In this document: positions 3,213 through 22,579 of the stretch, piece by piece | Layout of the letters: each line of letters begins with the position of its first letter | Numbering within the stretch: position 1 is the first letter of the stretch | Assembly: GCA_048939245.1 (NCBI GenBank) | Contig: JBHLPR010000034.1 | Span: 1 to 22,579, forward strand | Origin: Promethearchaeota archaeon | GTDB taxonomy: Archaea > Asgardarchaeota > Hermodarchaeia > Hermodarchaeales > Hermodarchaeaceae | Reading direction: 5' to 3' | DNA length: 22,579 nucleotides | Translations under genes and position numbers: made by a program | The notes under the pieces: model-generated | Databases searched by the model: none | The model's input: only the letters and a program-made list of their open reading frames with translations | Told to the model about the DNA's origin: nothing

Positions 3213-3343
3213 AAATGACCGATTAACAGTGTTGCGCGCTATCTCCAGGATTTAAGTCGGAAAGAGAGCCATTTTCATCGACGTTTAAGCCTGTTTTACG
3301 GATTTAAGAAAAGTATATGTGTCGCTCAATCGACGAAAGGTTC

Positions 3344-4854: not shown

Positions 4855-5487
4855 TTATTCTTTGACTTCCTTTTTCAGGCGTTCGAGTTCGCGTTTTGTG
4901 CGTTCGCGTCTTTCCTCGGATGTTTCGAGGAGCTCTTCTTCGCCTTCAGGCACGGCAGGTAATTGCCCGGCTTCTTCTAGGGCAATCATGGTTTCAATGT
5001 CTTCAAGCTCTGCATCGACTTCGGCATCCATTTCTTCATCTTCGAGACCCAGACCAAGAATCTCTTCAGTAGCTTCGGCTTCCTCAATGAGTGCTTGAGT
5101 TTCCAGAATCACTTCGCGAGCAACCTCAGGAGAAGCGGTTTCTCGAAGATTTTCCAACTCGGAACCAATGCCTTTCAAGGCACCGATTACTTCTGTTTCA
5201 CCGCGTGCTTGATCGATGGCTTCCACACCACGTTCCATCAAGTCGATTTCTTGTTCGATTAATCGAGCTTTCCGAAGATAGCGTTGGCGTCGACGGAGTT
5301 GAAGTTTGGCAGCCTTACGATCTCCACGTCGAACATAGCGGATTGCTTTAATCCGTGAATCCTTAGCCTTGGTTTCATACTGTCGACCACGGACTTCAAG
5401 TTTATCGGTAACCCGGTGAATTCGTGCAATGGTATCTTCTTTCGGTTCAGGTTTTTTCGGAAAGAGCTTTTCCCAGAATTTTGCCAT
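4855..5487 (-). CDS. ESCRT-III protein, Vps20/Vps32(Snf7)/Vps60 class
   Basis: Amphipathic N-terminus MAKFWEKLF, basic helical hairpin RRGDRKAAKLQLRRRQRY, acidic C-half DAEVDAELEDIE, and MIM2-like LPAVP. Confidence 0.9.
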   Translation of the reverse strand: MAKFWEKLFPKKPEPKEDTIARIHRVTDKLEVRGRQYETKAKDSRIKAIRYVRRGDRKAAKLQLRRRQRYLRKARLIEQEIDLMERGVEAIDQARGETEVIGALKGIGSELENLRETASPEVAREVILETQALIEEAEATEEILGLGLEDEEMDAEVDAELEDIETMIALEEAGQLPAVPEGEEELLETSEERRERTKRELERLKKEVKE

Positions 5488-5491
5488 TTTT

Positions 5492-6103
5492 CTAGCCCTC
5501 CTCCTTTAATCGCTCAATTTCTTTTTCGAGTTCCGAGACCCGCTTTTCGGGCTCGGGAAGCGAGGTGCCCGTTTCTACTTCAATTTCAGAATCGAGCTCT
5601 CGAAGTGCATCCTTTACCTCGCCATCGGTGACTTCAGTTGATACCGCCATTCGTTCCATTCCTGCTTCGGCTACTTCTTGGGTCATTTCGAAGTGGCGGA
5701 GGTTTCCTTCAATTTGATCTACGAGTTTGGCAACTTCAGGAACTTTCACCTGGTTCTTAAGCCCTCCGAGGGCAGAGTTGAGTTGCCCAAGGATTTTTGC
5801 CACTTCACCCATGGCTTCACTTTGGCGTAGCTGTGTTTGTAATCCTTCAATTCGTAGACGATACGCGTCTACACTAAGGGCCCATTTTTGGAAGCGCAGA
5901 TGGTGTTGTAAGTACATCCGCGTCGCATCCATATTTCCTTGAAGCCGGTACTTTTTGGCCCTCTGGCGGCTTTTACTCGCCTCTTTTTCGAGCATCTTCC
6001 GTTGTAAGTCGAGCTTCCGGCAGAAGACATCGAGGCGGAAGATGAGTTTCTTCAGATCGGGTCCGCCGCCCAGCCATGACATAAATCGGCGAATAGCAGA
6101 CAT
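5492..6103 (-). CDS. ESCRT-III protein, Vps2/Vps24/Vps46(Did2) class
   Basis: LIFRL...RKLDLQRKMLEKE...QGNMDATRMY resembles CHMP1/Did2. Has an LPEP motif and a MIM1-like C-terminal helix ELEKEIERLK. Separated from the next gene by 4 nt. Confidence 0.9.
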   Translation of the reverse strand: MSAIRRFMSWLGGGPDLKKLIFRLDVFCRKLDLQRKMLEKEASKSRQRAKKYRLQGNMDATRMYLQHHLRFQKWALSVDAYRLRIEGLQTQLRQSEAMGEVAKILGQLNSALGGLKNQVKVPEVAKLVDQIEGNLRHFEMTQEVAEAGMERMAVSTEVTDGEVKDALRELDSEIEVETGTSLPEPEKRVSELEKEIERLKEEG

Positions 6104-6137
6104 TATCGTTACCTTCCTGTCAACCCTTCAAATCGAA

Positions 6138-6150
6138 CCTATTATACTTT
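6138..6150 (-). promoter_or_regulatory. Putative BRE/TATA promoter of the ESCRT-III operon
   Basis: The minus strand reads AAAAGTATAATAG about 35-45 nt upstream of ATG 6103, followed by an SD-like AGGAAGGT. Confidence 0.45.
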
Positions 6151-6239
6151 TGGGCTCATAGCCTTTAATGGCACGGTTCTATGTATCGATTCGCAAAAAG
6201 AGAATCAATTCCAGGTCCAATACTTCGAAATGAGTCCTC

Positions 6240-6818
6240 CTAGAAAAGGCCGAGGTATCGTAACAATCCGATAATATGGTAGACGAGGGCGATGATGGTA
6301 CCAATAAGTCCAATCCATTGGAGGATTCTAGTTATAAGCTGATGAGAAGTGAGTGGAGTAGTGGTGATGGGCTGATAATCCTGTGGAATGGAGTTAGGAC
6401 GTTTACAGCCAATGGGTCCAAAGGCATCAACTTCTGGGAAAATGTTAATTTCAACGACTCCACGTGTGATTAGCTTGGTTAATGAATGGACGAAGGTGTG
6501 TTTCTTCATATTAAGTAAATTTGCAGCGGTAGTAATGCGAGTAGGATGAGTAATGGAGGCAACGAACCCAGTAACTATTCTGAGCCTTATGAGCTCGTTC
6601 CATTGACTGGTCGAAAGCCACATACCTAAGAACACAAAAATCAGTGATATTGTAAACCACGGAATACCCACAAGTAACAGAACACCAAAGGCGATGAGGC
6701 CTGCAATAGTAATAGCGACACCTATACTGATTGTAAGAGTATATCCTTCAGTTAATCGCCCCATGTTCTTATGATCTAGCGTCACTTCCATCACATTACT
6801 GCGTGTGTCACAGGTCAA
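6240..6818 (-). CDS. Membrane protein with a central winged-helix-like segment
   Basis: Two N-terminal TM helices, then TRITTAANLLNMKKHTFVHSLTKLITRGVVEINI (PCI/wH-like pattern), then a C-terminal TM helix. Start codon uncertain. Confidence 0.6.
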   Translation of the reverse strand: MTCDTRSNVMEVTLDHKNMGRLTEGYTLTISIGVAITIAGLIAFGVLLLVGIPWFTISLIFVFLGMWLSTSQWNELIRLRIVTGFVASITHPTRITTAANLLNMKKHTFVHSLTKLITRGVVEINIFPEVDAFGPIGCKRPNSIPQDYQPITTTPLTSHQLITRILQWIGLIGTIIALVYHIIGLLRYLGLF

Positions 6819-7151
6819 TTTAGCAACTATGTTTATTTATATATATGCTTATAACTATAATTAATTAGCATTAGAAACGTCAATTAATAATTTGGCTCCA
6901 AATTTAATTAAATTAACTGCAAGCCGCCGTTGTAGCGACAGTTCCCTTTTAGCCACAGCCTTTGCCACGTTAGTCTAGAATATTCGAATTACGTGACGGA
7001 GAATTATTTACGATTAGCCCAAGGCGTTTATTTATATACTCACCTATAATTATAGCGATTTACTGCTACAAAGGAGTCGACCAAACCAGCCAACGTAACA
7101 AACTAGAAAAGCGGTTCTTTAACATCAAAAAAATTCTCTGAGCTGAATCTT

Positions 7152-8459
7152 ATGCTTCAAGCGCTACCGACATTTCATCCACTCCTAATAATTGGCCTAA
7201 TCATTTTCTTAGCCGTCGTTGGTGCAGAGATTCAACGTCGCTTAGGGATTCCCCAAGTCCTCGGATTCATCACCATCGGAATCCTACTCGGCCCCTTAGT
7301 TTTTGGGATGATAGATGAAACTCTACTTTCATTTTCCCCTATCATTACAGCCATCGCACTAGGCTTCATCGGATATAACATTGGAAATGAGTTTAGGATT
7401 GATAAAGTGAAAAAGAACGCATCAAAGCTTTTTCCAATCTTGCTTGCAGAAACACTTGGAACATATTTTTTGGTATTTTTTGCAATATTCTTTTGGCTCC
7501 AGGACCCAATATTAGCAATTCTTTTAGGAAGTCTTGCAGCCGCAACCGCCCCTGCAGCAACGGCAGACATTATTTGGGAATTTAAAAGCCGAGGAGCAGT
7601 TACAGATTCGTTAATGTTTATTCTTATTATGGACGATGTCATCGCAATCATCCTGACCAGTATCGCGATTAGTGTTGTATTTCTTTTTCTTAATCCCGTA
7701 GGCACGACATTAATTGCCTTGGTAGCTGCACCCATAATCGAGATTGTTCTCTCAATCCTTATTGGTGCAGGATTTGGAATTCTTCTAGCCCATTTTCTAC
7801 AAAATGTTACAGATCATGGACGATATATACTGCTACTGATTAGCGTAATTATACTGATTATTGGAATTGCTCAATTCCTACATGCCAGTTATTTACTTAC
7901 ATGCATGGTATTTGGAATCGTACTTAGCAATCGCGTTCCAAAGGAATCAATCGAGTTAGGAAATGAAGCAGAAAAGATTCTAAGCCCGATTATTCTCCTC
8001 TTCTTTGTGTTCTTCGGGGCAGGAATGATTAATCCCGTATTGTTGGTTACAGGTGGCTTACTTATCTTCACAACGGCAATTATCTATGTCATAACACGAA
8101 CTCTAGGAAAATATTTCGGAACTCGGATTGCAGCGAAAATCACTGATAGCCCAACAGCAGTAAAGAATTATCTTGGATTATGCTTATTTAGCCAAGCTGG
8201 TGTCGCAGTTGGATTAAGTGTCGTAATGGCAGATTATATGACTCAACTTGGAGTACCAGAATATGCAATTATCATAGTGGGAGTTATTGGCATCTCAACA
8301 CTTATCTTTCAGCTTTTTGGACCACTATCTGTTAAAGTGGCAATCCATAGAGCCGGTGAAGTGAACAACGATAATGAGAATAAAACACCAACAAATGATG
8401 AAACAACACAATCAGGGCAAACATGTGGTTTCCAAGGTCAAGATTCAGATTCCAAATAA
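7152..8459 (+). CDS. Cation:proton antiporter (CPA2 / Na+/H+ exchanger family)
   Basis: About 12 TM helices. IPQVLGFITIGILLGP, ATAPAAT, IMDD, R..GKY.G and SQAGVAVGL motifs. Confidence 0.9.
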   Translation: MLQALPTFHPLLIIGLIIFLAVVGAEIQRRLGIPQVLGFITIGILLGPLVFGMIDETLLSFSPIITAIALGFIGYNIGNEFRIDKVKKNASKLFPILLAETLGTYFLVFFAIFFWLQDPILAILLGSLAAATAPAATADIIWEFKSRGAVTDSLMFILIMDDVIAIILTSIAISVVFLFLNPVGTTLIALVAAPIIEIVLSILIGAGFGILLAHFLQNVTDHGRYILLLISVIILIIGIAQFLHASYLLTCMVFGIVLSNRVPKESIELGNEAEKILSPIILLFFVFFGAGMINPVLLVTGGLLIFTTAIIYVITRTLGKYFGTRIAAKITDSPTAVKNYLGLCLFSQAGVAVGLSVVMADYMTQLGVPEYAIIIVGVIGISTLIFQLFGPLSVKVAIHRAGEVNNDNENKTPTNDETTQSGQTCGFQGQDSDSK

Positions 8460-8584
8460 AAAGCAGCGTTTCGATTTTAGTAAATCTTTCATCACCTCTT
8501 CCAGAGGAGTAAGACCACATTTCTAAGCTATTCTTTTAAACACGATATCTTGAATAATCATTTTAGAAGATACTAGTAGAAGCG

Positions 8585-8905
8585 ATGAAGATCATGGTAA
8601 CACCTGATGAAAAATGGCCAACCGCCTCCTTTGAAGAAAAATATCAGATGATGATTGGTAGTATGTCCAAGGATCAACAGAAAAGATCCGCGCAAAACGC
8701 TGTCCATCTCTGTCTTTGTAATAGGTGTCAGACCAACAACGAAACCGGGGAAATCAATCGTGTCTATTGCACCTTCGGCGAATCAAATTCAATTCAAGAG
8801 CAGAAGGGATGCCTTTGTTCAGAATGCCCAATCACCAAGACCATGAGTATGCGTTGGAACTATTACTGCATCCGAGGTTCAGCAGTGGATCTCTCAGACT
8901 TATGA
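8585..8905 (+). CDS. Cys-rich small protein, DUF2769-like
   Basis: CLCNRC...YCTFGES...KGCLCSECP...YYCIRG pattern. Confidence 0.75.
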   Translation: MKIMVTPDEKWPTASFEEKYQMMIGSMSKDQQKRSAQNAVHLCLCNRCQTNNETGEINRVYCTFGESNSIQEQKGCLCSECPITKTMSMRWNYYCIRGSAVDLSDL

Positions 8906-9024
8906 CCCCTAGTATTCTCTGATAGATTTGACCAAGTGATTTCCGAGTTCGATTTAGAAAAAATCCAATAATGCACTTTATATTGTTGGTCGAGGAACTA
9001 ACGTGAAACTCCGATACCTCATTT

Positions 9025-9249
9025 GTGAACTACCCCACCCTAAAGTGTGGAGCTTCCTGCTTCATCCCATCGACTCGTGTCGACTGGTCCACAGGATTTA
9101 CTCGCCGTTCCGGCGATATTGCCCAGCCACCGGATGACCTTGGTTCTCGGCCCTAGTGATTGAGACTGCATCTAGTTTAGGTGGAAAATCTTAGCTTAAC
9201 TCCTCGATTCATACCTGCCCTCAAAGGTGGGGTCTTCTCTGGGATGAAG
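9025..9249 (-). mobile_element. Non-autonomous IS200/IS605-family miniature element (PATE-like) with a TnpB omegaRNA-type right end
   Basis: On the minus strand: TTTAT target (9254-9250), then a left-end hairpin AGAAGACCCCACCTTTGAGGGCAGGTATGAAT, and a right end ...CCTGTGGA...GATGAAGCAGGAAGCTCCACACTTTAGGGTGGGGTAGTTCAC ending in TCAC. No tnpA or tnpB ORF. Confidence 0.85.
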
Positions 9250-9279
9250 ATAAATACGAATTGAACAAGATTTTTTGTT

Positions 9280-10821
9280 ATGGCCGCTTCTGAATCTCTT
9301 TCTGCATCAACTTATGACGACTATGTGCCTGTAAAAGCAAAACTGGGATTTAGCGCAGCTAATACGTCAAATATCCTCTTATCTGGTTTGGCTCTTGGAG
9401 CTATTGATATTTTTTATCTCAAATTCTATAATTTGGACCCCCGACTCCTAGCAATCTCTTGGATTCTGTTCATGGGATGGAATGCTGTTAATGACCCATT
9501 GATTGGGATTATTCAAGATAGAACTAAATCCAAACTTGGGCGCCGAGTTCCTTACTTGCGGTACGGGGTGATCCCGTATACGATAGCTTTTCTGTTAGTC
9601 TGGTTTCCTTTCATTTTTAATTCACAGGTCCTTTATTCTTTATTTGCGCAATGGTTTCCAGGAATCAACACTACTGATGTGGGCTTGTTTTGGAATCATT
9701 TGATGATGCTATTTATTTTCGACACGTTGTTTAGCATGATTGGTTTGATATGCAATATTCTCCCTGCCGAAATGGCTGTTACGGCACAAGAGCGGACGAA
9801 TGTTGTAGCCTTTGCTACGATTTTGGGGGTGCCTGGTTCAATCCTTTCGGTTATTCTTCCGATTATGTTACTCGGTGGAGACAGCCCCGATAAAACTACT
9901 TTTTTAATCGTGATGGTGGTTATTGCCATTATTGCAGGGGTATTGCTGTATGTATCGAGTTATTTCATTAAGGAAAATCGCTATGCGGTGACTGAGAAAC
10001 CATTGGGCTTCAAAGAGAGTATTATCGACACTTTCAAGAACAAGCCATTTCTAATCTTGGAAGTCACCATCTTTTCGTTTGTGGTACTTCAAGAGTCGAT
10101 GTTTAGCGGATTAGTTTATTTAATGGATTTTGTTTTGATTATTACTGGCTGGATGTCAATCGTTTCTCTTATCCCAGTTGTGATTGTGTTTGGCTGGGTG
10201 TTATGGAAGCTGCTGAGTAAAATCTCTAGTCTTGGACTCCGAAAAACCATGTTGAGGGCGTCTTTCATTGCGATAATCGGATATATTCTATTCTTGGTGA
10301 TTGGATTGTTCTGGGGTCCACGAGTATCTGTGGAGATGGTCGTGATTGCACTAGGTTTAATGTTTGTGGGATTATTGACGTTCGTGATGATCAACCAACC
10401 TTTGTTGGGGGAGGCCATTGATTATGATGAGATTCTCACTGGGAAACGCCGAGAAACGACATATTCAGGAGTCAACGCATTAATCACCAAGCCTGGAGTA
10501 TCGATTGCGCATTTCCTCACACTCTCAATTATGGCGATGTTTGGTTATAACGCCGACCTTCCCGTCTCAGCACAACCTACATCAGTGTCGATGGGAGTTT
10601 TCCTTGTGTTTACAGTAGTACCAATAGGTTTCCTCCTTATTGGTAGCCTCGCAATGATGAAATATCCCCTTCATGGTGTGGAGTGGAAAGATCAAAAGCT
10701 CCACCTGCAGAAGATTCACACGCAGAAAGAGCAGGAGTACTTGGTTTATCTCGAAGAGGTGATATTGAACAAGAAAGAGAATATCGAGGATAAAACACAA
10801 TCAGATGAACCGCATGGATAG
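9280..10821 (+). CDS. MFS transporter, glycoside-pentoside-hexuronide (MelB/MFS_2) family
   Basis: WNAVNDPLIGIIQDRTKSKLGRRVPY and DYDEILTGKRRETTYSG motifs, about 12 TM helices. Confidence 0.92.
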   Translation: MAASESLSASTYDDYVPVKAKLGFSAANTSNILLSGLALGAIDIFYLKFYNLDPRLLAISWILFMGWNAVNDPLIGIIQDRTKSKLGRRVPYLRYGVIPYTIAFLLVWFPFIFNSQVLYSLFAQWFPGINTTDVGLFWNHLMMLFIFDTLFSMIGLICNILPAEMAVTAQERTNVVAFATILGVPGSILSVILPIMLLGGDSPDKTTFLIVMVVIAIIAGVLLYVSSYFIKENRYAVTEKPLGFKESIIDTFKNKPFLILEVTIFSFVVLQESMFSGLVYLMDFVLIITGWMSIVSLIPVVIVFGWVLWKLLSKISSLGLRKTMLRASFIAIIGYILFLVIGLFWGPRVSVEMVVIALGLMFVGLLTFVMINQPLLGEAIDYDEILTGKRRETTYSGVNALITKPGVSIAHFLTLSIMAMFGYNADLPVSAQPTSVSMGVFLVFTVVPIGFLLIGSLAMMKYPLHGVEWKDQKLHLQKIHTQKEQEYLVYLEEVILNKKENIEDKTQSDEPHG

Positions 10822-10909
10822 AAAAAACTTGTTCATTATCTCAATCGGCTCAAAAGACCTGATCATTGTTTGATTTAATTTGTATTCCAATGGTTTAAGA
10901 CGTTTGGAT

Positions 10910-12523
10910 CTATTTTCTCATCATTTTTTTAGGATTAACGGTCATTTCGATGCCATAGCCTAAAAATGTCAGTCCAATAACAAAGGCAGCTATGCATATT
11001 CCAGGAGGGAAGAACATCCACCATGCTCCATAAGCAAGGGCATTCCCGTAGAATGCAACGGCAATCATTCGGCCCCAAGAAACAAAGTTGATGGGTAAGA
11101 ATATTGGTGAACTTGGAGTTCCTCGAAATTCGTCGAAGTTGTGTCGATAATCAAAGAAACCTAAACTGGCTTCGATTGTTACAGCAGTAGCTGCAATCAA
11201 TGTTAATTGAACCAGAAAAATTGTCAAAACATTTGGTAAGATTGTTCGAAAAATTAAGTATCGGGAACCGGCTCCCGCTGCGCGGGTAGATTCCACGTAG
11301 CCTTTTTCTTTTTCAACTAAAACTTGAGAACGAATTACTTTTGCCGTTTGAGGCCAAGTTAATAATGCTATGATCAAAATCATGAATTCGTAACTTGCCC
11401 CTTGCAGCACTACCATTAATACCATTAGAATCGGTAAAATTGGAAAAATGAGGAATAAATTCGAAACTGCCATTATAATTTCGTCTACAGCCCCACCTGT
11501 ATAACCTGCAATAAGTCCGGTGCAGAGACCGATTGTACCGCTAATTAATGCGGTTGATAAGGCGACATAGAGTGATATATGAGATGCCCAAAAGAGCTGT
11601 GATAGAATATCGTTACCATCCGTACTCGTTCCAAGCAAGCCGTAATAACGGCTTACTCCCCGGATTTCCATTTGATCGAACCAAAATTCGATGGTTCCGG
11701 TTCGACTTGCATCTTCTTCTGTAAAGTATAGTCCGAATTCGATGGTCACATTTTCAAAAGGTCGAAAAATGTGATTGCAGAGGAGGGAAACAATTGGCCG
11801 TCGATAAATTTCCCAATCAGAGTTGAATGAAGTAAATTCAAAATGATAGTAATTTACCGATACAGGAGGTGTGTCATTTGGAAGATATACTTCCAGATAT
11901 GGGATGACGGAATTGTGTGTGAAATTACCTGTGAATTTTGATTTCATAGCAAATTGAATAGCAATATCTGCTGGCGTACGATAGGGAAAGATGAAACTAA
12001 TTTTCCCCCATACGCTTTCTGAATATGCATCTGAGCTATTATTCTCAAATAGAGAAAATTTAACAGAACGTTGACCGGCAATAAATTCATCCATATCATA
12101 CGAAAAGTTGGCAACAGAGGGGTTAGAAGCGCCCATTATACAACTAGAGTTGTCTGTAAAAAAGGGGTCTGGAATGTAATTACCCGTGGGAGCTGCAAGA
12201 GGATCAAGAAAGGCTAACCAACCAGGCGCACACTTTGGTGGTCCCACAACATTTCCAACCCGTAATCCAGGATAGATTGGGAATAATATCGGTGCTAGAA
12301 TAGCCATGAAAATAGTGAACAAAATAATTCCGAGCCCAACAGGACCATACTTGGAATGGTAAAAATTCATCCATAAATTTTTGATATGCTCTTTCGGAGT
12401 TTGCCGATGTCTTATTCTTTGTTGGTTCATTATTACAAAGCACAGTTCGGAGTTTTCTGGTATATTGTATGCGGTGATGAGTTTGACGTGTGACGTATTA
12501 AGCTTTTGGAGTTGTTCAGCCAT
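10910..12523 (-). CDS. Peptide/nickel ABC transporter permease (DppC/OppC-like) with a large extracytoplasmic insertion
   Basis: LLGTSTDGNDILSQL, EAA motif YVESTRAAGAG, ILPN, EASLGF, SWG and AWWMFFPPG. An alternative start is ATG 12430. Confidence 0.9.
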   Translation of the reverse strand: MAEQLQKLNTSHVKLITAYNIPENSELCFVIMNQQRIRHRQTPKEHIKNLWMNFYHSKYGPVGLGIILFTIFMAILAPILFPIYPGLRVGNVVGPPKCAPGWLAFLDPLAAPTGNYIPDPFFTDNSSCIMGASNPSVANFSYDMDEFIAGQRSVKFSLFENNSSDAYSESVWGKISFIFPYRTPADIAIQFAMKSKFTGNFTHNSVIPYLEVYLPNDTPPVSVNYYHFEFTSFNSDWEIYRRPIVSLLCNHIFRPFENVTIEFGLYFTEEDASRTGTIEFWFDQMEIRGVSRYYGLLGTSTDGNDILSQLFWASHISLYVALSTALISGTIGLCTGLIAGYTGGAVDEIIMAVSNLFLIFPILPILMVLMVVLQGASYEFMILIIALLTWPQTAKVIRSQVLVEKEKGYVESTRAAGAGSRYLIFRTILPNVLTIFLVQLTLIAATAVTIEASLGFFDYRHNFDEFRGTPSSPIFLPINFVSWGRMIAVAFYGNALAYGAWWMFFPPGICIAAFVIGLTFLGYGIEMTVNPKKMMRK

Positions 12524-12739
12524 GTAGGTCTGATACCGTTATTGGCTTGATCATTTTCGATGTCGGATATGTCATAATCTTGGGCATCATTGTCATAATT
12601 GTGATAATTACAGTCACATATAATTTTTCAAAAAATGAATAAGAAGAATCAATCTAAAATGAAAATCTGTTGTTTTTGTGAGAGTGATATGCTCAATATA
12701 ATTCGAGGTTAAATGATTTTTACATGATAAGAGTATTAA

Positions 12740-12880
12740 CCTACAAAATTTTTCATATGATGTTTCTTAGCCACAAAGACCAAAGAAGGCGTTTCTGGGG
12801 AGCGATAACCGCGTAAGTTTTTCAAAGATTTTTTTCGGGTAGTAACCAGAAAAGCCACCTCACTTCACTCATTGCCAAAG
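12740..12880 (+). repeat. Dispersed cassette-boundary repeat, copy A
   Basis: CCTACAAAATTT-N18-GCCACAAAGACCAAAGAAGGCGTTTCTGGGGAGCGATAACCGCGTAAG...TAACCAGAAAAG, with tail TTGCCAAAG. Confidence 0.9.
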
Positions 12881-13055
12881 AGTTTCATTTTTCTGCAGAT
12901 ATTTATTGTCTTAACTTTTTTCCGCTTCGACTTAGTAGAAGAATCTGTTGATATGTTGGAAAAAAAGACTATTGGGTTTTTCCACTGAATTCTCCTTTGA
13001 GCGGGAGAAAAGAACTACCAGATAGATAATAGAAGTCAAAAACCTCTATCAGTGC

Positions 13056-13092
13056 AAAAAAACCAAGAAGGCGGTTGATAAGCACCGCCTTC
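13056..13092 (-). terminator. Hairpin + U-tract terminator-like structure after the DUF308 gene
   Basis: Perfect 9-bp stem GAAGGCGGT/ACCGCCTTC (13067-13092), followed on the minus strand by a T7 run. Confidence 0.6.
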
Positions 13093-13135
13093 AGCTATAA
13101 CGCCTATATCCCTAATAAGTAGGCAGTTTGGTTGC

Positions 13136-13684
13136 TTAGTGGTGACCTGTGATTCCTTTGACGAGGGCATTAAATCCAAACATCATGAAGCCAAGGGCTA
13201 CATAGATGATAAGAAGTAGATATCCAAATCCAGGTAAAGCGATGACTACAAAGGATAAGATAATGCCGATGAAACCAATGATAACAAGCCACCCACGATA
13301 CCAACCTGGAAGCTCAGTTATCATTGCACCAAAAACAATGGTATTTAAGCCGTTTACAAGGAGACCTATGACTAGTAACCAAATCAGCAGAAGTTCACCA
13401 AAAGCGGGGAAGGCGATTACCAGACTGGCTAACGAAAGCATAAGGATTCCAAGTATGACGGTAAGGACCCTTAGCCAAGTAGGTGTTTGTTTAGACAGAA
13501 GTCCCCCGACCAAATTACCAACCCCTAAGAAGATAAGAATCACTCCGAGAAAGGTAATTAAAACGAGTATCGTTAGGACTTGTAGCCAATCAAACCATAT
13601 AACTGCAAAGGCGACACCGATAGTAATGAAACCAACGATGATATTGAGAATACGTAACCACATAGGAATTACTGTTTCACTCAT
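13136..13684 (-). CDS. HdeD/DUF308-like membrane protein
   Basis: Three internal repeats (WLRILNIIVG, WLRVLTVILG, WYRGWLVIIG) and six TM helices. ATG 13684 (MSETVIP) is preferred over 13762. Confidence 0.75.
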   Translation of the reverse strand: MSETVIPMWLRILNIIVGFITIGVAFAVIWFDWLQVLTILVLITFLGVILIFLGVGNLVGGLLSKQTPTWLRVLTVILGILMLSLASLVIAFPAFGELLLIWLLVIGLLVNGLNTIVFGAMITELPGWYRGWLVIIGFIGIILSFVVIALPGFGYLLLIIYVALGFMMFGFNALVKGITGHH

Positions 13685-13897
13685 TAAGAATGCACCATTG
13701 GTGGGGTGAAAAAGAACCCTTAATATGTGTTTAGCTTTTATGAAAGCTGATTCGAACAACATGAATTGAACTTTTAGTGAAAAAACGAATTTCAGCTAAG
13801 AAACCAATTGTTCGTTTTTATTTGATAGATTAACAGAAGTACCTAAGGCTTTTATCGAAGATGAATGCAATGAGGGATAATAATCCTCTTTGGTGAA

Positions 13898-14257
13898 TTG
13901 ATAATGGTAGCAGGAATTATTGGCACCGCTATAATCTTCATCGTTGATTGGATCGTGATATCTGTTGTCATTATGCTTGCAGGTAAACTCGTCGCTGGTA
14001 TGGAGGCTACGTTCAAGCGGGCACTACTAGCCAGCTTAGTTGCTGCAATCGTTGGAACTTTAGTATATTACGGTATAGAGTGGTTCTTTCCATCACTCGG
14101 ATGGCTCTCAGGGGTCATCGTTTTCATTCTATATCTGGCGATTATCAGATATTACTTCCAGACTGGATGTATCGGCGCATTACTAGTGGCTATCATTGCC
14201 CTCATTTTGTGGATCATTCTCGCCTATCTTTTCACAGCCTTCCTCCCAGGATTCTAA
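13898..14257 (+). CDS. Small four-TM membrane protein, function unknown
   Basis: 119 aa hydrophobic ORF with a GGTGA SD-like sequence upstream. The start may be ATG 13904. Confidence 0.75.
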   Translation: MIMVAGIIGTAIIFIVDWIVISVVIMLAGKLVAGMEATFKRALLASLVAAIVGTLVYYGIEWFFPSLGWLSGVIVFILYLAIIRYYFQTGCIGALLVAIIALILWIILAYLFTAFLPGF

Positions 14258-14277
14258 GCGCCAGCTAAGAAAAAACC

Positions 14278-14309
14278 AGGAGCCCTTTGTGGCTCCTACC
14301 CTCTTTTTT
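14278..14309 (+). terminator. Hairpin + U-tract terminator-like structure
   Basis: AGGAGCC-CTTTGT-GGCTCCT stem-loop followed by T6, 20 nt after the stop at 14257. Confidence 0.55.
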
Positions 14310-14405
14310 ATGAATGGGTATTTGTAGACATATGCTTTAAAGAGTCATTCTGCCATTTCTTGAGAAATAGTATTTGAGCTTCACATCTTCTTAGGAGTAA
14401 GTACT

Positions 14406-15473
14406 ATGAAAAAGAGTGAACGCCCTCGTGGAGTGAAAATCCTTGTTATGATTTGGTCACTGAATGCAATGTTTCACCTTGGGATTGCCTTTTTTCGCGT
14501 TTTGACAGGAATTGGAATGTTGGAAGGAATTTACCCTTCTGATCCAAGCATTCCGAATTTTATTGATACCATCACTAACACCCTTAGGATCCTAGGCACG
14601 CCAGAAAATGTCATTGCCATCGTAGAAAGCGTAAAGGGACTTTTAGCAGGGATTGAGGGCAGCTTCTACATAATTTCTGGGGTCATATATTTAGGCATAG
14701 CAACCATCTATGCCTACATAAGCATCAACATTTGGTATATGGACTACCAAGCCATCTGGAAAGCTATTCTTATCAACATTTTAGAAATCGTCTTTTTCAT
14801 CAGCGTTTTTCAAACCATACTCAACCTCATAATTCAATTTCTGTGTATACTATCAATTGGGGTAATTATCATTATGAGCAGTTATCTCATCTTGAGACGA
14901 AATCTCTTCATTAATCGAAGAAAAGCCCGGGAAGAAGAACTCTTGGAAGGTGAAAAAGTCCCTAATCAACGACCTATGATTTACGGTATAATCGGGGGGG
15001 TAACCCTAATCCTTGTCCAGCGTAGTGGGCGAATACCCATTGTAACCTGGCTGCCACTCCTTCTTGGTCTGATTTTTATTCCCGAAATGACTCCTGAATT
15101 AATCACCTTGCTGATATTGTTAGACATTCTCGCATGGTGTGGTGGCTTCATCGTCATTGCCGGTGTGGTGCTCCTCTGGAGGGAGAATTATAATGGGGCA
15201 AAATTCCTAATGGGAATAGGTTCGGGATTTGGAATTGTTGGACTCTTAACGTGGTTTGCCATTGATTATGTCTTCAGCGCGATTTACCCTCTCGAGTACA
15301 CAATCATCCAATATGTTGAATTTTTTGGACTCTTACTAGTTCTTTTAGCTCGTGTGAGTATTCGCACGCCCAAGCAGTGGAAGAGAATCCTCGAACATCG
15401 GGCAAAGGAAGAAGCCGCCAAAGAGCGCTGGAGGTCCCGTTGGAGGAGGTTTACCAGTTGGCTAAGGAAGTAG
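14406..15473 (+). CDS. Polytopic membrane protein, function unknown
   Basis: 355 aa, about 8 TM helices, SD AGGAG upstream, basic C-tail. Confidence 0.8.
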   Translation: MKKSERPRGVKILVMIWSLNAMFHLGIAFFRVLTGIGMLEGIYPSDPSIPNFIDTITNTLRILGTPENVIAIVESVKGLLAGIEGSFYIISGVIYLGIATIYAYISINIWYMDYQAIWKAILINILEIVFFISVFQTILNLIIQFLCILSIGVIIIMSSYLILRRNLFINRRKAREEELLEGEKVPNQRPMIYGIIGGVTLILVQRSGRIPIVTWLPLLLGLIFIPEMTPELITLLILLDILAWCGGFIVIAGVVLLWRENYNGAKFLMGIGSGFGIVGLLTWFAIDYVFSAIYPLEYTIIQYVEFFGLLLVLLARVSIRTPKQWKRILEHRAKEEAAKERWRSRWRRFTSWLRK

Positions 15474-15491
15474 CTATCTGCAGAGTATTAT

Positions 15492-15637
15492 TCTGAGAAA
15501 TTTACCCTCAGCTAGTGCACGCCTGCAAAGACTAAAGAAGGCATTTCTGGGGACGATGACCGCATAGGGTTTTCAGGGATTTTCTTGAGTGATGACCAGA
15601 AAAGTAGGCTTCTTTTATTGTCATCACACCGGTAAAG
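15492..15637 (+). repeat. Dispersed cassette-boundary repeat, copy B
   Basis: TCTGAGAAATTT-N18-CCTGCAAAGACTAAAGAAGGCATTTCTGGGGACGATGACCGC...GTGATGACCAGAAAAG...GTCATCACACCGGTAAAG. Confidence 0.9.
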
Positions 15638-15822
15638 CACTTGTTTAGTTACATATACCCAAGATTCGTTTCATCTATGTTCTACCGTTACGAAAACATT
15701 ACCCTTTTTGTGCCTTTTTTCGAAATAACATTGAGCTTCGACAATTTGTACAAACGAGTAAGCTCTTGTTGTTCCACTGTTCTACTCCAACTCGCTCTGC
15801 TCGACATAGTCATTGGATCTTA

Positions 15823-17286
15823 TTAGTTTCCACCCCTAAAATCAGGGAACTGGTTCCCAGTGAATAATTGCGGAGCTACTTCCGAATATCCTGCCGCGAT
15901 CCGGTGTGCTGTGAGATCATCATAGGACTGGGCCACGATTTGAAGACCGGTTGGCATACCCTCAGAGGACCGCCCTGTGGGGGCATTGATGACAGGATAC
16001 CAGTTGAGAATATTAAACAGTGGCGTTAAGATCCAGCCAGCAAGCGAGTTAACCTCGACGCCATTGATGACCGTTGTGTCCTGGGTGTAATCGAGATCCG
16101 CTGGGATGTGACTGGTCGCTAGTGTGGGCATGACCATGGCATCATACCCTTTGAGGAAGATTTTGCTCTGGAGATGGTTGTTGGCGGCTTTGATGTTGTT
16201 TTCGTATTGGAGCGCTTCTTTCGCACCATACCCGCCTGTTGCCGCTTTATCCACAAAGTCCTTCCCATAAGTCGTCATTTGATCCCTTTGAGATGCGAAC
16301 CTCCCGAGCGTAGCCCCTTGTGGTCCATACAGTGCCGCTTCAACCAGGGCAAATCTTAGATCATCTGCGGTAACACCAAGGTCGAGGTCCACCTCATCAA
16401 CAACGGCACCAGCCTGCCGTAACAGATCGACGGCTTTGGCAGTATTTTTCGCCGTGTCAGTATCAATCTGCGCCCAACTTTGATCCGGGCTAAAGGCGAT
16501 ACGCACCCCTTTGAGGTCGGAATATTCTAACGGGAGTTCCAACTTCGGGCGAATGGTTGAAGGACTATAAGGATGCGGACCAGAGATGGTGTTCTGCATA
16601 TGGATGATATCAAGCAGCGTCCGAGCCATAGGCCCATTGGAAGCGATGACTAACAAAATCTCCGTGGTAGGCACACGCCCATAAGGGGGCTTGTATCCGT
16701 AAAGCCCATTGAACGCACATGGGATGCGAATCGACCCACCCATGTCTGAACCCGTTGCAAGGGTACAAAACCCCGCCGCTAATGCCGCCCCAGACCCACC
16801 AGATGATCCACCAACAGCGTATTTGAGGTTCCAAGGGTTCCGAGTAACACCCCATAAATCAGTCCAAGTGACCCCAGAAAAGCAAAACTCAGGTACCGTG
16901 GTTTGGATGTGTAGGATCGCCCCAGCTTCAAGCAATTTATTCGTAACCGGATCAGTTGCTTCAAGTTTGGCATCTTTATACAGCTTCGAGCCTTGGGTGA
17001 CTATCCAACCCGCCATTCCGTGTTCGTCTTTCATTCCAACTGTAATTCCTTCGAGGGGTCGCGGATTCCCTTGCTTATACCGCTTTTCAGATTCTTTTGC
17101 AGCTTTTCGGGCGGAATCAAAATGGGTGTAGGTGATAGCGTTAACTTTCTCATTCTCTGCTTCGATGCGAGATATTTGGGCTTCCAGAACATCAACAGGC
17201 GAAATCTCCTGGGCCTTGAAAAGCTCAAGAAGCCGGTGTGCAGGGGCGTAAACAAGTTCCAAATCAGAATTACCCACAGATATCAC
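15823..17286 (-). CDS. Amidase (amidase-signature family)
   Basis: Catalytic Lys in GMKD, plus TRNPWN, GGSSGGS, GSDMGGSIRIP and GYKP motifs. Confidence 0.95.
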   Translation of the reverse strand: MISVGNSDLELVYAPAHRLLELFKAQEISPVDVLEAQISRIEAENEKVNAITYTHFDSARKAAKESEKRYKQGNPRPLEGITVGMKDEHGMAGWIVTQGSKLYKDAKLEATDPVTNKLLEAGAILHIQTTVPEFCFSGVTWTDLWGVTRNPWNLKYAVGGSSGGSGAALAAGFCTLATGSDMGGSIRIPCAFNGLYGYKPPYGRVPTTEILLVIASNGPMARTLLDIIHMQNTISGPHPYSPSTIRPKLELPLEYSDLKGVRIAFSPDQSWAQIDTDTAKNTAKAVDLLRQAGAVVDEVDLDLGVTADDLRFALVEAALYGPQGATLGRFASQRDQMTTYGKDFVDKAATGGYGAKEALQYENNIKAANNHLQSKIFLKGYDAMVMPTLATSHIPADLDYTQDTTVINGVEVNSLAGWILTPLFNILNWYPVINAPTGRSSEGMPTGLQIVAQSYDDLTAHRIAAGYSEVAPQLFTGNQFPDFRGGN

Positions 17287-17460
17287 CAGTACGAATTTCT
17301 TATGGAAATGTCAGCGATTAAAAACCTACTGGTATTCCGAATGACTTGAATTTGAATAAATCCTTAGAAAACAGTATTTACATCTACGTTGGAGAATAAT
17401 GCTAACGATTAAGATGGCTCTTTCTTCAGTAGATAAATGGTTTGAAGCGACTGCGTTTTA

Positions 17461-17506
17461 TGGAGTTTATCATATTTTAGGAGGCGTTTCTGGGGGCGAT
17501 AACCGC
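17461..17506 (+). repeat. Dispersed cassette-boundary repeat, copy C (partial)
   Basis: TGGAGTTTATCATATTTTAGGAGGCGTTTCTGGGGGCGATAACCGC. The left flank resembles copy G and similarity stops just after the core. Confidence 0.8.
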
Positions 17507-17575
17507 AAAAATAATCTTCTGTAATAAATGGAGAAATTAATACCTTCAAATGCCATTATTGGACTCGCTACCCTA

Positions 17576-18076
17576 TCATTTTTCATCCAATTCAAGTATT
17601 GTTTCTACTGTCCATTTAGCAGCGTTTTCCGTTACAGAAGAACATTTTTCAACTGGCTTCGTTTCCATAAATGCTTGGATATCCTCAGGATTGAGAGAAT
17701 CATATGATCTCCCATACAATTTCGTTTGTATTTCACTGCACAAGAAGCCGCCATACTCTTGATTGAACTTTTCTCGAAGCAGCTTCACGACGCCCCATAT
17801 CTTCTCCGTTGTTGGTCCCATACTCTTGTATTTCTCTCGGTTCACTCCGTACTTCAGTCCTATTGCCGCTATTCCTCCACAAATAGAGCCGCAACCTCCG
17901 CTAAGACTGGATAAACCAATCATTGCCTTGAACAAAGAATCGCAGACTTCCAAGTCTAATGTATCAGCCACTGCTAAGAGAGTGGCTTGAGCGCAGCCTC
18001 CGTATTTCGACATATATTCTTTGCCTAATCGTCTTGCTTTTTCTATGAGTTGTTCATTTTTAGACATAATCATCAA
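17576..18076 (-). CDS. C-GCAxxG-C-C family putative redox-active protein
   Basis: YGGCAQA, GCGSICGG, LCSEI and KCS cysteine pattern. Confidence 0.88.
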   Translation of the reverse strand: MMIMSKNEQLIEKARRLGKEYMSKYGGCAQATLLAVADTLDLEVCDSLFKAMIGLSSLSGGCGSICGGIAAIGLKYGVNREKYKSMGPTTEKIWGVVKLLREKFNQEYGGFLCSEIQTKLYGRSYDSLNPEDIQAFMETKPVEKCSSVTENAAKWTVETILELDEK

Positions 18077-18212
18077 CCAATTCGTTTCGGATATATGGCA
18101 AATCTCTACTAAAAACGAGTTAAAAAAAGTAATGAGTTCGAGTCATAAGACCAATTGAGGATTTCTCACGAAAAATGAAGTTGAGTATAGTGTTTTGAGA
18201 AGAGATAGTTTT

Positions 18213-18326
18213 CCTGCAAAATTTGTTATATGGTAGATTGTACCCGCAAAGACTAAAGAAGGCATTTTGGGTGGCGATAACCGTTTATTTTTTTCCGGAG
18301 TTTTCTTGACCGACAACGGGAAATAG
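18213..18326 (+). repeat. Dispersed cassette-boundary repeat, copy D
   Basis: CCTGCAAAATTT-N18-CCCGCAAAGACTAAAGAAGGCATTTTGGGTGGCGATAACCG...TCCGGAGTTTTCTTGACCGACAACGGGAAA. Confidence 0.92.
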
Positions 18327-18530
18327 GGTAATTGCATTAAGAATTTGAGACACACAGAAAATTGTTTCGATTCTAATCGCATTCGAGAAGTAACAGACCT
18401 ATTAGCAATCATACGCGATGAATAATCTGGTAATAACGCTTCAGGCATCTATTACAACGTAAATCAATTGAACGAAAATAGAACATAAATAATCAGAGTT
18501 ATTTGTAATTTTAAAGTAACAGGGATCAAA

Positions 18531-19649
18531 TTGTATAAAATCACTAAGGATTCATCTAAAGTCATTGGTTTAACAATGGTTGCAGCTATTCTAGTGTTGT
18601 TAGCTTTACAGTTATATTTAACAACACCAGAAACCCGGTCTTTTGAATCAGAAAGTCAATCATATTTCTGTACAATCTTTAGTGTATCAATGGGTGACAA
18701 AGTATTCTTTGGTAATAATGAAGACTCTAAATGGTCACCTGAAACATCATTTATTTCTTTTATTCCACCTCAAACAATATACAATTTTAGAAATCTGCCA
18801 AGCTTTGGTTCATCACTTGACATCTATGGTCAAGTAATCGTTGGAACTGTTTTACGGGAAGAAGGACAGGACTATTACTATGCACAAGGAGGAATGAATG
18901 ATCAAGGCCTTTGTTTTGATGCGAATGCTATTCCCGAACAAATTCTAGATAATGAAAATGCCGATTGGCGTCCATTAAACGCTCATTGGGATATACTGTG
19001 GCATTGTCGCACGGTGGAAGACGTCATCAATTGGTATGAAACACACCCAATGATGTTCACGATATGGTCTGGTCAATGGAATTATGTAGACGCATCTGGT
19101 GATGGAGTTGTTGTTACAGCGACAGATGGTGAACTAGTATTTGTAAGGAAAAATACCAGCTACCTTGTATCAACTAATTTTAACCTTGCAGAACCTAGTA
19201 GTCATTACTTTGACTATCCTTGCTATAGGTACGACACTGCTACTGAGATGCTTGCAGAAATTGACAGTGAAGATGAGCTTACAATAGAAGCTTGTCGTGA
19301 TGTACTTAAGGCTACGCACTTTGAAGTTAATATCTTTGATAAACTTCACACAATGTACAGCACTATTTATGACGCAATTAGTAGAGATATCTACCTTTAT
19401 TTTCTTCATGACTTCACAGAGGTTGTTGAATTCAATCTTGAAGACGAAATCTCAAAAGTTGATTTGTTTGAAAGTAACAATACATTTCATAGCGCTATTA
19501 TAGATAATACTTACCTGATGAAGAATTTCTTTCATTATACATATTCAGGTTTCTTTTTATCTGATTATTTGATTGTTTTTCCATTAATCGGTGGTTTAAG
19601 TACCATTGTCATTATTGTTACTTTTCTGAAAAAAAAGAAACATTCCTGA
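18531..19649 (+). CDS. Membrane-anchored Ntn-hydrolase (C45/choloylglycine hydrolase/acid ceramidase-like)
   Basis: N-terminal TM or signal, nucleophile motif CTIF...FGNNED, GGMNDQGL, STNF and RY motifs, C-terminal TM helix followed by KKKK. Confidence 0.85.
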   Translation: MYKITKDSSKVIGLTMVAAILVLLALQLYLTTPETRSFESESQSYFCTIFSVSMGDKVFFGNNEDSKWSPETSFISFIPPQTIYNFRNLPSFGSSLDIYGQVIVGTVLREEGQDYYYAQGGMNDQGLCFDANAIPEQILDNENADWRPLNAHWDILWHCRTVEDVINWYETHPMMFTIWSGQWNYVDASGDGVVVTATDGELVFVRKNTSYLVSTNFNLAEPSSHYFDYPCYRYDTATEMLAEIDSEDELTIEACRDVLKATHFEVNIFDKLHTMYSTIYDAISRDIYLYFLHDFTEVVEFNLEDEISKVDLFESNNTFHSAIIDNTYLMKNFFHYTYSGFFLSDYLIVFPLIGGLSTIVIIVTFLKKKKHS

Positions 19650-19829
19650 CTTTCCAGTTATGAACTAAACAATCATAGTATCTAATAACATTCCACCTAA
19701 ATGAAATGAATAATGATCTAAGAGCTAATTGATAATCATACCCGAGCAAATACTTTTGTTAACAGCGAATAACTGATATGATATTCTATTGGCTGTTCTC
19801 AGAAAAAAAATGGGCAAGTGCTCCTTCAA

Positions 19830-19945
19830 CCCGCAACATTTTCTGAGGAACCATGATTTCCCGCAAAGACTAAAGAAGGCGTATCTGGGAGCGATAACCG
19901 CATAATATTTTCAAGGGTTTTCGCGGGTGATAACCTGAAAAGTCA
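19830..19945 (+). repeat. Dispersed cassette-boundary repeat, copy E
   Basis: CCCGCAACATTT-N18-CCCGCAAAGACTAAAGAAGGCGTATCTGGGAGCGATAACCGC...GTGATAACCTGAAAAGTCA. Confidence 0.92.
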
Positions 19946-20887
19946 ATCCCCTCGCGTGTTATGTTCCACCATTATTACTACATTTCCTTTCTTGTGTCCT
20001 TTGTCAACATATCGGTGGGCTTCGACAATTTGCTCCCATGGATAGGTTTTATCTATGACCGGTTTTATCTTTCCCGCCTCAACAAGCTCTTTTAGGAAAA
20101 TTAGATCGTCAACCTTTTCGCTTCCGATGTTATCATGAGCTGACATGTATGTCCCCGTTGGAGTTAGTGCTTTCTTACGATTTGCTTTGGGGATTTTTGC
20201 AACGGCATCAAAGATGATATCATAAAACTCTCCTTTTTCCGTAAAATCCACTTTAGTATAATCAATTACCTTATTAGCTCCCAGAGACTTCACTAACTCT
20301 AAATTCGTGGTACTGCATACCCCGGTAACTTCGGCCCCAAAGTACTTAGCAAGCTGTACTGCAAAAGTACCTACACTTCCAGAAGCACCGTAGATCAGAA
20401 CTTTTTGTCCGCTCTGGATATTTCCTTTCCTAAGAAACCTTAATGCATGAGCTCCTCCAGTCGCAAGTCCGGCAGCGGCTTCCTCATAGGTCATATTGGT
20501 CGGTTTTATTGCCACAATCCCGTCTTCAGGCAGACATCTGTATTCCGCATAACCACCAAAACTCATCCCGGTAGAAGCAAAAACCTGATCACCTTTTTTA
20601 AACCGTGTTACCTCTTTGCCTACTGCTTCAATTTTTCCAGCTAACTCCATTCCAAGGATTTTTTTCCGTGGTCCTCTGATACCTAGAATTAGTCTTGTGA
20701 GGAGCCTTTGGAAGGCGCCACCAGGGATGGTGAAACTTCGTATTCTAGAGTCTCCCCGATGCACTGTTGTCGCATAGACTTTAATCAACATTTCATTGTC
20801 CTTGGGAGTGGGCTTTTCAACCTCTTTGAACTGGAGAACTTCCGGTGGTCCGTATTTTTTGCATTCAATCGCTTTCATTTTCATCAT
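19943..20887 (-). CDS. NAD(P)-dependent medium-chain dehydrogenase/reductase (quinone oxidoreductase-like)
   Basis: MKAI...[27 protein letters not shown] nucleotide-binding motif, GHKKGNVVI. Zn-binding cysteines are absent. Confidence 0.93.
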
Positions 20888-20938
20888 CGATTGATTTCTT
20901 TACGTTTAAGGCAAATAAAATCTTACCTCAGATATTAT

Positions 20939-21153
20939 CCTGCAAAATTTGTCATCCGCTAGTGTCTACCCGCAAAGACTAAAGAAGGCGTTCTCAAAGG
21001 CGATAACTGATTTAATTTTCTCCGGAGTTTTCTTGACCGACAGTGGGAAAAAGTCAGCTGCAGCCTTACCCTGTCATCGCTCGAGAAAAGTCTGCCAAAG
21101 CCGAAAGTCGAAGATTAAATTAATACTGCCCAACCAAGGGTGCCCCAAGATAA
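20939..21153 (+). repeat. Dispersed cassette-boundary repeat, copy F (longest)
   Basis: Both CCYGCAAA boxes, the core, right arm CTTACCCTGTCATCGCTCGAGAAAAG, and tail GCCAAAG...TCGAAGAT...CAAGATAA shared with copy G. Confidence 0.92.
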
Positions 21154-21278
21154 AGTGTGTCACCTTTGCCGTGTTAGCTTATCTACCGCCGGGACTAAAG
21201 ACGACAATGGTATCCGTTCTTGTTGAATACATTTTTCAGTAAATTCCTTGAGTGATTAGAGATAAAGAGAGGTAGCCC

Positions 21279-22142
21279 ATGAAAATTACAATCATTGGAG
21301 TTCCGTTTAATGGAGATGGAACGCCTCCTGAAGTTGAAAACCCAGCCCAATCCCTTAGAGATGAAGGGGTGATTTCCGTACTTCAGAACAAAGGACATCA
21401 CCTAACTGATTTTGGCGATTTGCACATTCCCATGTTTTCAAATAAGAAAGATCCAATTACAAATGTTCTGAATTTTGATGCGTGGCGAGAGGTATCTCTG
21501 AGTTTATCTAGAACTCTAGGTGATGAATTAGCTCAAGATAGTTTCCCAATTGTACTGGGCGGAGACTGTGCCATTCTAATGGGGATTCTTGATGCGTTCA
21601 ATGTAATGAATCAACCTTTGAACCTCTTCTTTCTTGACGGACACGCTGATTTTCACACTCTTGATACCTCAACAACCGGTGAGCCCGCTGACTTAGAATT
21701 AGCTGCCTTGACAGGGCATTTGTCTAAAGAAATCGTTTACATGACAGGACGAGGGCCATTACTGCATGAAGAAAATGTCGTTGTATACGGAGTAGGTGAA
21801 CTTGACTCTATCGAAAGGTCGAATATCATGTTAGTTAATCGCAAATCAATTTTAAAAGATGGAATTGAACCAACCTTTCGTCGAAGCCTTGGCTCATTCC
21901 AGAATCCGGATTTGCCACTTTGGCTCCATTTTGATGTTGATGTCTTGGACAAAGAAATCATGCCAGCTATACAGTATCCTGTTGAGGGCGGTCTCTCATA
22001 CAACGAAATCCAAGAATTGCTTACTCTCCTAAAGGAAAGAACCCAACTAATCGGAATGAGTATTACTTGTTACCATCCAAAGCTGGATTATGATAAAAAA
22101 GGAGCCAAAACGCTTCTTTTACTTTTCAAGGAAATTTTCTAA
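21279..22142 (+). CDS. Arginase/ureohydrolase family protein
   Basis: GVP, DFGD, LGGDC, DGHADF, HFDVDVLD, GGLS and YHP.LD motifs. Confidence 0.92.
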   Translation: MKITIIGVPFNGDGTPPEVENPAQSLRDEGVISVLQNKGHHLTDFGDLHIPMFSNKKDPITNVLNFDAWREVSLSLSRTLGDELAQDSFPIVLGGDCAILMGILDAFNVMNQPLNLFFLDGHADFHTLDTSTTGEPADLELAALTGHLSKEIVYMTGRGPLLHEENVVVYGVGELDSIERSNIMLVNRKSILKDGIEPTFRRSLGSFQNPDLPLWLHFDVDVLDKEIMPAIQYPVEGGLSYNEIQELLTLLKERTQLIGMSITCYHPKLDYDKKGAKTLLLLFKEIF

Positions 22143-22249
22143 GACAGGAATTAACGAAAAAATTTCAAAAATGACGGAATGTATCTTTAATAGCCTTACT
22201 AATAATCTTGACTTTTGGGATTTGATGGAGGGAAAGTCTCTAAGCTTTG

Positions 22250-22436
22250 TGGAGTAGACCATATTTAAGAAGGCGTTATTGGGGGCGATAACTGATTTAA
22301 TTTTTTCCGGAGTTTTCGTGGCTGATAACGGGAAAAGTCGTTCCTCTTCTTACGCGGTTATCGCACCAGTAAAGTTGCCAAAGTATAATATCGAAGATAC
22401 ATAATCTACCAAAGTGTATAACACTCCTCAAGATAA
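22250..22436 (+). repeat. Dispersed cassette-boundary repeat, copy G
   Basis: TGGAGTAGACCATATTTAAGAAGGCGTTATTGGGGGCGATAAC...TCCGGAGTTTTC...ACGGGAAAAGTC...CTTACGCGGTTATCGCACCAGTAAAGTTGCCAAAG...TCGAAGAT...CAAGATAA. Confidence 0.9.
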
Positions 22437-22579
22437 GCAACTCATTCATTTAATCTAAGGATGAATTTCAAACCAAAGGCGATATACTACATTTGGTTCT
22501 TGTGAGAAGAAGAAGATGGGAATAAAGTTCTGGTTCATGAAAGCTTTCGTCATGAGATTCGGTATACCAAGAATCAAAC

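Follow-up and report, generated by a model that had tools for sequence, protein, structure and literature searches.

The stretch analysed here, referred to below as the window, comprises 22,579 nt of DNA from a Promethearchaeota archaeon (contig JBHLPR010000034.1) and is the entire contig C19 of a 2.5-Mb metagenome-assembled genome (MAG) that is 88% complete (G000). It carries an array of gene cassettes alternating with copies of a repeat. The array spans the region from a pair of ESCRT-III genes on C19 to the vps4 gene on contig C54, where ESCRT-II and ESCRT-I genes follow downstream of vps4. The ends of C19 and C54 are the two ends of one 4Fe-4S-protein cassette and lie about 765 bp apart, as seen from a relative assembled across this place (L177). 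All evidence comes from comparison among MAGs, and the system belongs to a single genus, Ca. Hermodarchaeum.

The first-pass annotation of the window had described seven co-oriented intergenic copies of the repeat, and both their positions and a profile hidden Markov model (HMM) confirm them: all seven are intergenic and on the plus strand, six with E-values from 3.7e-42 to 4.2e-28 and an eroded third copy with 1.5e-4 (the best E-value in the reversed genome, used as a control, is 3.4). No copy was detected by the model within 6100-12720. The number seven holds for the window but not for the genome, where the same search finds two more at the end of C54, nine in all.

The repeat unit had been taken as 40 bp, while it is really about 170 bp, and the quoted 40-mer straddles the junction of two separately inherited halves. 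Each repeat has three parts: a left arm (about 60 bp) and a right arm (about 100 bp) flank an 11-bp core, and the arms pass down with different cargo, the left one with that upstream and the right one with that downstream. The core sequence is AAGAAGGCGTT (exact at 41 of 57 sites), which has the form AA-7 bp-TT. Left arms are of two types, A (with two boxes, at -43 and -13) and B, the latter found in copies 3 and 7 of the window, whose left arms are unlike the others. The right arm carries the box GYGATRAC at +18, again at +54/55, and in inverted form near +90. At the last junction, studied in 14 loci, the left arm (A or B) and the core are followed by the vps4 leader; all three, left arms of type A and of type B as well as the vps4 leader, change over inside the same 11 bp. 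Rfam gave no credible match that would identify the repeat as a structured non-coding RNA. The features of the window are as follows.

4855..6103, minus strand: two ESCRT-III (Snf7) genes, which form the fixed left flank and, where the locus is empty, are divergent from vps4 (Snf7 calls made on orthologues)
6240..12523, no strand assigned: eroded old end of the stack, genes without sites (membrane protein, antiporter-like, DUF2769, MFS, ABC permease)
12727..12877, plus strand: junction 1, type A left arm, core 12783-12793, right arm decayed
12783..15534, plus strand: interval 1, probably fused cassettes, with three membrane-protein genes at 13136-13762 (minus), 13898-14257 (plus) and 14406-15473 (plus); 75% and 89% identical to G012
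15482..15654, plus strand: junction 2, type A, core 15535-15545, right arm with the full set of three boxes
15535..17477, plus strand: amidase cassette, gene 15823-17286 (minus); 93% identical to G012, 92% to G003
17449..17510, plus strand: junction 3, left arm of type B whose 5' part has been replaced, core 17478-17488, truncated right arm
17478..18255, plus strand: C-GCAxxG-C-C protein cassette, gene 17576-18076 (minus)
18203..18326, plus strand: junction 4, type A, core 18256-18266
18256..19872, plus strand: Ntn-hydrolase cassette, gene 18531-19649 (plus), 34.7% GC
19826..19954, plus strand: junction 5, type A, core 19873-19883
19873..20981, plus strand: MDR oxidoreductase cassette, gene 19943-20887 (minus); 91% identical to G013, the match stopping at core +10
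20931..21116, plus strand: junction 6, type A, core 20982-20992
20982..22266, plus strand: arginase cassette, the cleanest mobile unit, gene 21279-22142 (plus); 95% identical to G012, 92% to G008
22212..22398, plus strand: junction 7, type B, core 22267-22277, right arm with the full set of three boxes
22267..22579, plus strand: first part of the 4Fe-4S-protein cassette, which runs off the contig and resumes on C54 after the gap

The earlier cargo assignments hold for the amidase, C_GCAxxG_C_C, zinc ADH/MDR and arginase genes, the AAT/Ntn hydrolase being weakly supported (E 1e-4), and Pfam has no match for the three membrane genes of interval 1. Across the genus, the cargo consists of accessory metabolism and transport genes, 26 oriented with the site strand and 18 against it. 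The median cassette interval is 1.3 kb, and arrays reach eight units. Two short segments with matches on other contigs were seen in the window. One, at 17360-17448 (89 bp, 96.6% identical to C68:549-637), takes the place of the amidase cassette's end and of the left arm of junction 3 in its 5' part, with short homologies at both joins. The other, at 9024-9253, is a 230-bp element, possibly a small mobile one, that is 77-81% identical to stretches on C78 and C69 and occupies the place of the relatives' junction after the DUF2769 gene.

The cassette behaves as a unit in comparisons between genomes: alignments of shared cassettes start at core offsets -2 to +1 or stop at +10 to +13. In particular, the arginase cassette, 92-95% identical, has three different upstream neighbours in G000, G012 and G008, and two cassettes occur in opposite order in L027 and in L094/L180. 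Six genomes share the 4Fe-4S cassette at 92-97% identity; in the five of them with an assembled vps4, that gene is 71-81% identical, a difference which indicates that cassettes have been exchanged horizontally between species. Cross-class transfer, considered for an arginase carrier labelled as 'Hodarchaeota', was rejected, as this genome belongs to the same species as G012 (99.9% identical). Moreover, genes bounded by sites in some genomes are found without sites at the ESCRT-III end in others, including window positions 6240-10821; the membrane protein, DUF2769 and MFS genes of the eroded end are examples with sites in relatives. The assembled loci show a stack eroding away from vps4.

The repeat was detected by BLAST in 13 of the 14 other genomes of the genus, the 14th having a terminal copy, but in none of four sister-genus genomes and none of 22 more distant ones. 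A search of 185,579 species genomes for the junction pattern gave nine matches, all in contigs from Ca. Hermodarchaeum genomes. At every locus all copies are on one strand. There is one clear stray array junction, in G004 (contig C48), where a full junction with a DUF2769 gene lies at another chromosomal locus (L035:12945-13858), 770 bp from a site of the dif-like family described below.

The state without an array is seen in three sister-genus genomes, where ESCRT-III and vps4 are directly divergent and about 220 bp apart, with the same core upstream of vps4 and no insert. A 15-mer target is present in 17 of 19 genomes of the class, in one copy each upstream of vps4, with the exception of G014. 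The locus of a hot-spring lineage is empty too, its core being degenerate. Judging from these loci, the target of the cassettes is the upstream region of the host vps4 gene. In two sister-genus loci (L075 and L073), the 14-20 bp preceding the TATA-like word upstream of vps4 repeat the first vps4 codons, and the DNA between the two divergent promoters cannot be aligned between species.

These observations support the proposal of the first-pass annotation that the region is a gene-capture platform of an Asgard archaeon, and all three lines that could have told against it came out in its favour. A dispersed family of miniature inverted-repeat transposable elements (MITEs) is not seen, as 34 of the 36 matches of a right-arm model in 19 genomes fall on array contigs and no flanking duplications were found at 52 sites; cargo content differs between genomes; and the breakpoints coincide with the repeats, falling at the core. 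The recombinase expected at the end of the array was not there, its place being taken by vps4.

The core is kept upstream of vps4 even where there is no array. Its left edge carries a TATA-like hexamer whose distance to the vps4 start, 55 nt, is the one at which such motifs are most frequent across the genome; a comparable AT-rich word is found upstream of vps4 in an Odinarchaeum-like genome. The core is inferred to lie in the vps4 promoter, each left arm replacing the displaced half containing the B recognition element (BRE) and TATA box. Scans for sigma-70 promoters and terminators remained at chance level, these methods being unsuited to archaea.

Sequence comparison of the loci shows a cassette unit and an 11-bp crossover bracket, and the sister genus has the site empty; the units have moved between species, changed order and eroded away from vps4. 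The explanation that we favour, with confidence somewhat above even, is that integrative cassettes lacking an integrase have accreted into an array at one fixed target just upstream of vps4, in a way that resembles cis-mobilisable elements (CIMEs). A cassette consists of a right arm, cargo in either orientation and a left arm; its circle would carry an attP-like site (left arm-core-right arm) and recombine as double-stranded DNA with the vps4-adjacent core. New units would enter beside vps4, and internal junctions would permit excision of single units. The short repeated arm boxes are candidate arm-type or accessory protein-binding sites, and the combination of an AA-7 bp-TT core and arm boxes would suit a tyrosine integrase of the lambda type. 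Every cassette may carry a left arm because this arm would supply the BRE/TATA half of the vps4 promoter. The enzyme, on this view a tyrosine integrase, would come in trans from an autonomous element seen in no assembly, and deletions and gene conversion would erode and homogenise older junctions.

The closest published parallels are the CIMEs, or tandem accretion arrays, of Streptococcus at fda, rpsI, rpmG and tRNALys (PMC5704250, PMC7563491), in which the most decayed units lie farthest from the target (PMC7563491). In both systems, elements lacking an integrase but retaining their att arms are stacked at a single host gene, with chimeric internal sites, distal decay and metabolic cargo. In the vps4 array, the arms travel with the cargo around the 11-bp core, the cargo families shown include no mobility gene, the units are stacked in tandem at a fixed host gene whose site is empty in relatives, and the most decayed ones are distal. 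Unlike CIME arrays, it is archaeal, targets an upstream (promoter) region, has up to eight units of one site family instead of two or three, and contains single units more than 90% identical between species, with no integrative and conjugative element, integrative and mobilisable element or relaxase seen. The array is described here as CIME-like and not as a member of the class, because the parent element is unseen; membership would further involve excision and conjugative mobilisation in cis. Integrated elements of Atabeyarchaeia (Yucahu-i; PMC11529989) likewise come from Asgard archaea and have an 11-bp core duplicated at both ends, but they encode their own tyrosine integrase and replication genes and form no multi-cassette stacks. 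No description of the present array was found in a search of the published literature.

Several results weigh against the accretion of integrase-less cassettes. No integrase was found in the arrays read, including L026, L038 and L162, each of which covers ESCRT-III through vps4 in a single contig; no array site lies near ten further integrase loci of the genus; and viral contigs contain no junction or right arm. An autonomous element with a cognate integrase was therefore found in none of these three places, though MAGs often drop such elements. The polarity that speaks for accretion, an increase of right-arm identity to the consensus toward vps4 (r 0.42, permutation p 0.027), is modest, and the arrays share cassettes, so they are not independent. 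Some arms look mosaic between genomes by eye, because of which homologous exchange probably also acts on the arms. As for the proposed promoter role, the enrichment of the type A hexamer upstream of genes is only 1.4-fold. The viral contigs also contain no copy of the 4Fe-4S cassette and no member of the XerA clade; four left-arm matches in them were rejected as chance matches in phage genes.

The same cassettes and core could instead be served by the host enzyme XerA, which would make the array a stack of the type formed by pdif modules or by integrative mobile elements that exploit Xer (IMEXs), with the arms as accessories; we consider this unlikely. XerA is the single tyrosine recombinase of G000, scoring 274 against the XerA cut-off of 220 and 164 against the IntI cut-off of 265, and the only site-specific recombinase found across the genus. 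It is full-length in 12 of 15 genomes and partial in one more, absent from all four sister-genus genomes, and missing from the syntenic place in one of them (G017). The genus XerA forms its own clade (the next named matches are bacterial XerC, 42-47%), and its helix-J motif is invariant and unlike the XKX motif of Thermococcales XerA. The AA-7 bp-TT form of the core also speaks for this reading. However, the co-occurrence of XerA and the array amounts to one evolutionary contrast with one possible counter-example, the hot-spring lineage, whose site is empty and degenerate and whose sample also holds this Xer (same organism not proven). Moreover, a second repeat family, dif-like with an XerD-type right arm, shares the distribution: 13 of 15 genus genomes have one to seven copies, often in co-oriented clusters, and none of the four sister-genus genomes has any (examples are G000:C93:16926-16949 and 17814-17837 in L174, G011:C33, G006:C34 and G004:C111). 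This family has no likeness to the array core and is probably a separate Xer-dependent module system. As it fits better, it appears to be the better XerA target, and XerA has been demoted to a rival.

The first-pass annotation had also compared the repeats to pdif modules. In Acinetobacter, the recombinase of such modules is not module-encoded, and the host site is regenerated on integration. The same two features link IMEXs at dif (PMC9765430) with the vps4 array. Still, the comparison fails at the site itself, as the array core lacks the TAA-N6-TTA geometry (it is not an 11-6-11 site with TAA/TTA inner ends), its arms are long, and the separate dif-like family exists in the same genomes. A canonical TAA-N6-TTA dif candidate on C22 was discarded, not being conserved. 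Conserved non-coding motifs flank xerA across the genus (L043, about 780-1110 and 2070-2530), with an inverted operator-like pair upstream; downstream, in very AT-rich DNA, lie paired TTC-N8-GAA boxes and a hairpin resembling a terminator. Short contigs of a fragmented MAG (L088 and L087; G013:C49 and C238) carry integrase fragments, integron-integrase-like and P4-like, that are probably bacterial contamination.

Less probable still is a flexible island with no dedicated recombinase, where the repeats are homology landing pads and the array results from RadA-type recombination with selection for an intact vps4 promoter. The mosaic look of single-cassette arms, the deletions that fuse cassettes away from the core and the failure to find an enzyme speak for it. 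Against this, the switch points of both left-arm types and of the vps4 leader all fall in the same 11 bp, exchange crosses species at 71-81% flank identity, and a non-host right arm with boxes at fixed spacing is left unexplained.

We give little credence to non-autonomous transposon-type cassettes (casposon-like or similar to mobile insertion cassettes), with imperfect terminal inverted repeats and repeated insertion at one target duplicating 9-11 bp. The type A left arm and the right arm do form an imperfect inverted repeat around about 10 bp, and insertion appears polar toward the leader; however, type B left arms have no such repeat, and part of the repeat is already present in the empty host site. 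As for enzymes, G000 has no Cas1, resolvase, IS110 or Y1 transposase, and no large serine recombinase was found in 19 genomes (DDE families were not searched). IS110, present in only three genomes, all relatives, was rejected, since its ends are unrelated to the array sites.

The last alternative, integron cassettes with diverged attC sites, i.e. a cluster of attC sites lacking integron-integrase (CALIN), is very improbable: the site-gene-site layout, a conserved GTT at the junction and the enrichment of integrons in Asgard MAGs (PMC9668308) speak for it, but the crossover motif GTTRRRY of the attC core pair (RYYYAAC ... GTTRRRY) occurs at 0 of 57 junctions, single-strand folding is at background (mean z -0.6 to +0.2, near 0 on both strands; consensus energy -2.3 kcal/mol; no covarying stem), cargo orientation is mixed, the fixed flank is on the wrong side of GTT, and G000, an incomplete MAG, has no IntI. 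The earlier remark that the site does not fit RYYYAAC/GTTRRRY and that genes point in both directions thus stands. Archaeal attC sites, by comparison, retain the fold (PMC9668308). A single attC-like core pair among the 57 sites (GCCTAAC ... GTTAGGC, 63 bp) lies in the 3' part of the first junction of L038 (9634-9790, G014).

Nevertheless, the vps4 array works like an integron yet does not belong with integrons. It shares with integrons and CALINs, including archaeal ones (PMC9668308), a fixed platform, gene-sized cassettes, polar growth, re-ordering and exchange between taxa, but has no attC motif, hairpin, IntI or attI, its junctions are formed from both cassette ends, and its cargo is in both orientations. 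It looks like a gene store comparable to an integron but without integron sites or an enzyme of its own, with accessory genes plugged in, swapped between species and lost at an 11-base spot in the apparent vps4 promoter. More speculatively, and rather doubtfully, it could be an integron analogue that arose independently and was domesticated: purpose-built cassettes, kept as a standing pool and bearing double-stranded two-armed sites, would be captured and shuffled by a host or undescribed recombinase, and each insertion would also swap the upstream half (A/B) of the promoter of vps4 and its ESCRT-II neighbour, coupling capture to ESCRT expression.

Such an array represents a route of gene acquisition in Asgard archaea that is invisible to attC-based screens, and it sits in the ESCRT locus, central to ideas on eukaryote origins. 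It also explains the frequent assembly breaks at vps4 in Ca. Hermodarchaeum. Since a short attachment site, single-copy upstream of vps4 across nearly the whole class sample, and natural cassettes are now defined, the missing recombinase can be sought directly.

Some further features were noted around the locus and elsewhere in the genome. A conserved 497-aa protein adjoining ESCRT-III (window 3317-4810) has weak zinc-ribbon, GRAM/PH and Vps23-core matches. Within the ESCRT/ubiquitin cluster on C54 there is a TnpB (IS605 OrfB) gene without TnpA (L001:7057-8454), found in the same place in L162; considered as a relevant enzyme, it was judged unrelated, being missing from the loci of most relatives. 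Another co-oriented short repeat is present in three copies at G000:C29:14097-15878 and in two copies at C82:2264-4061.

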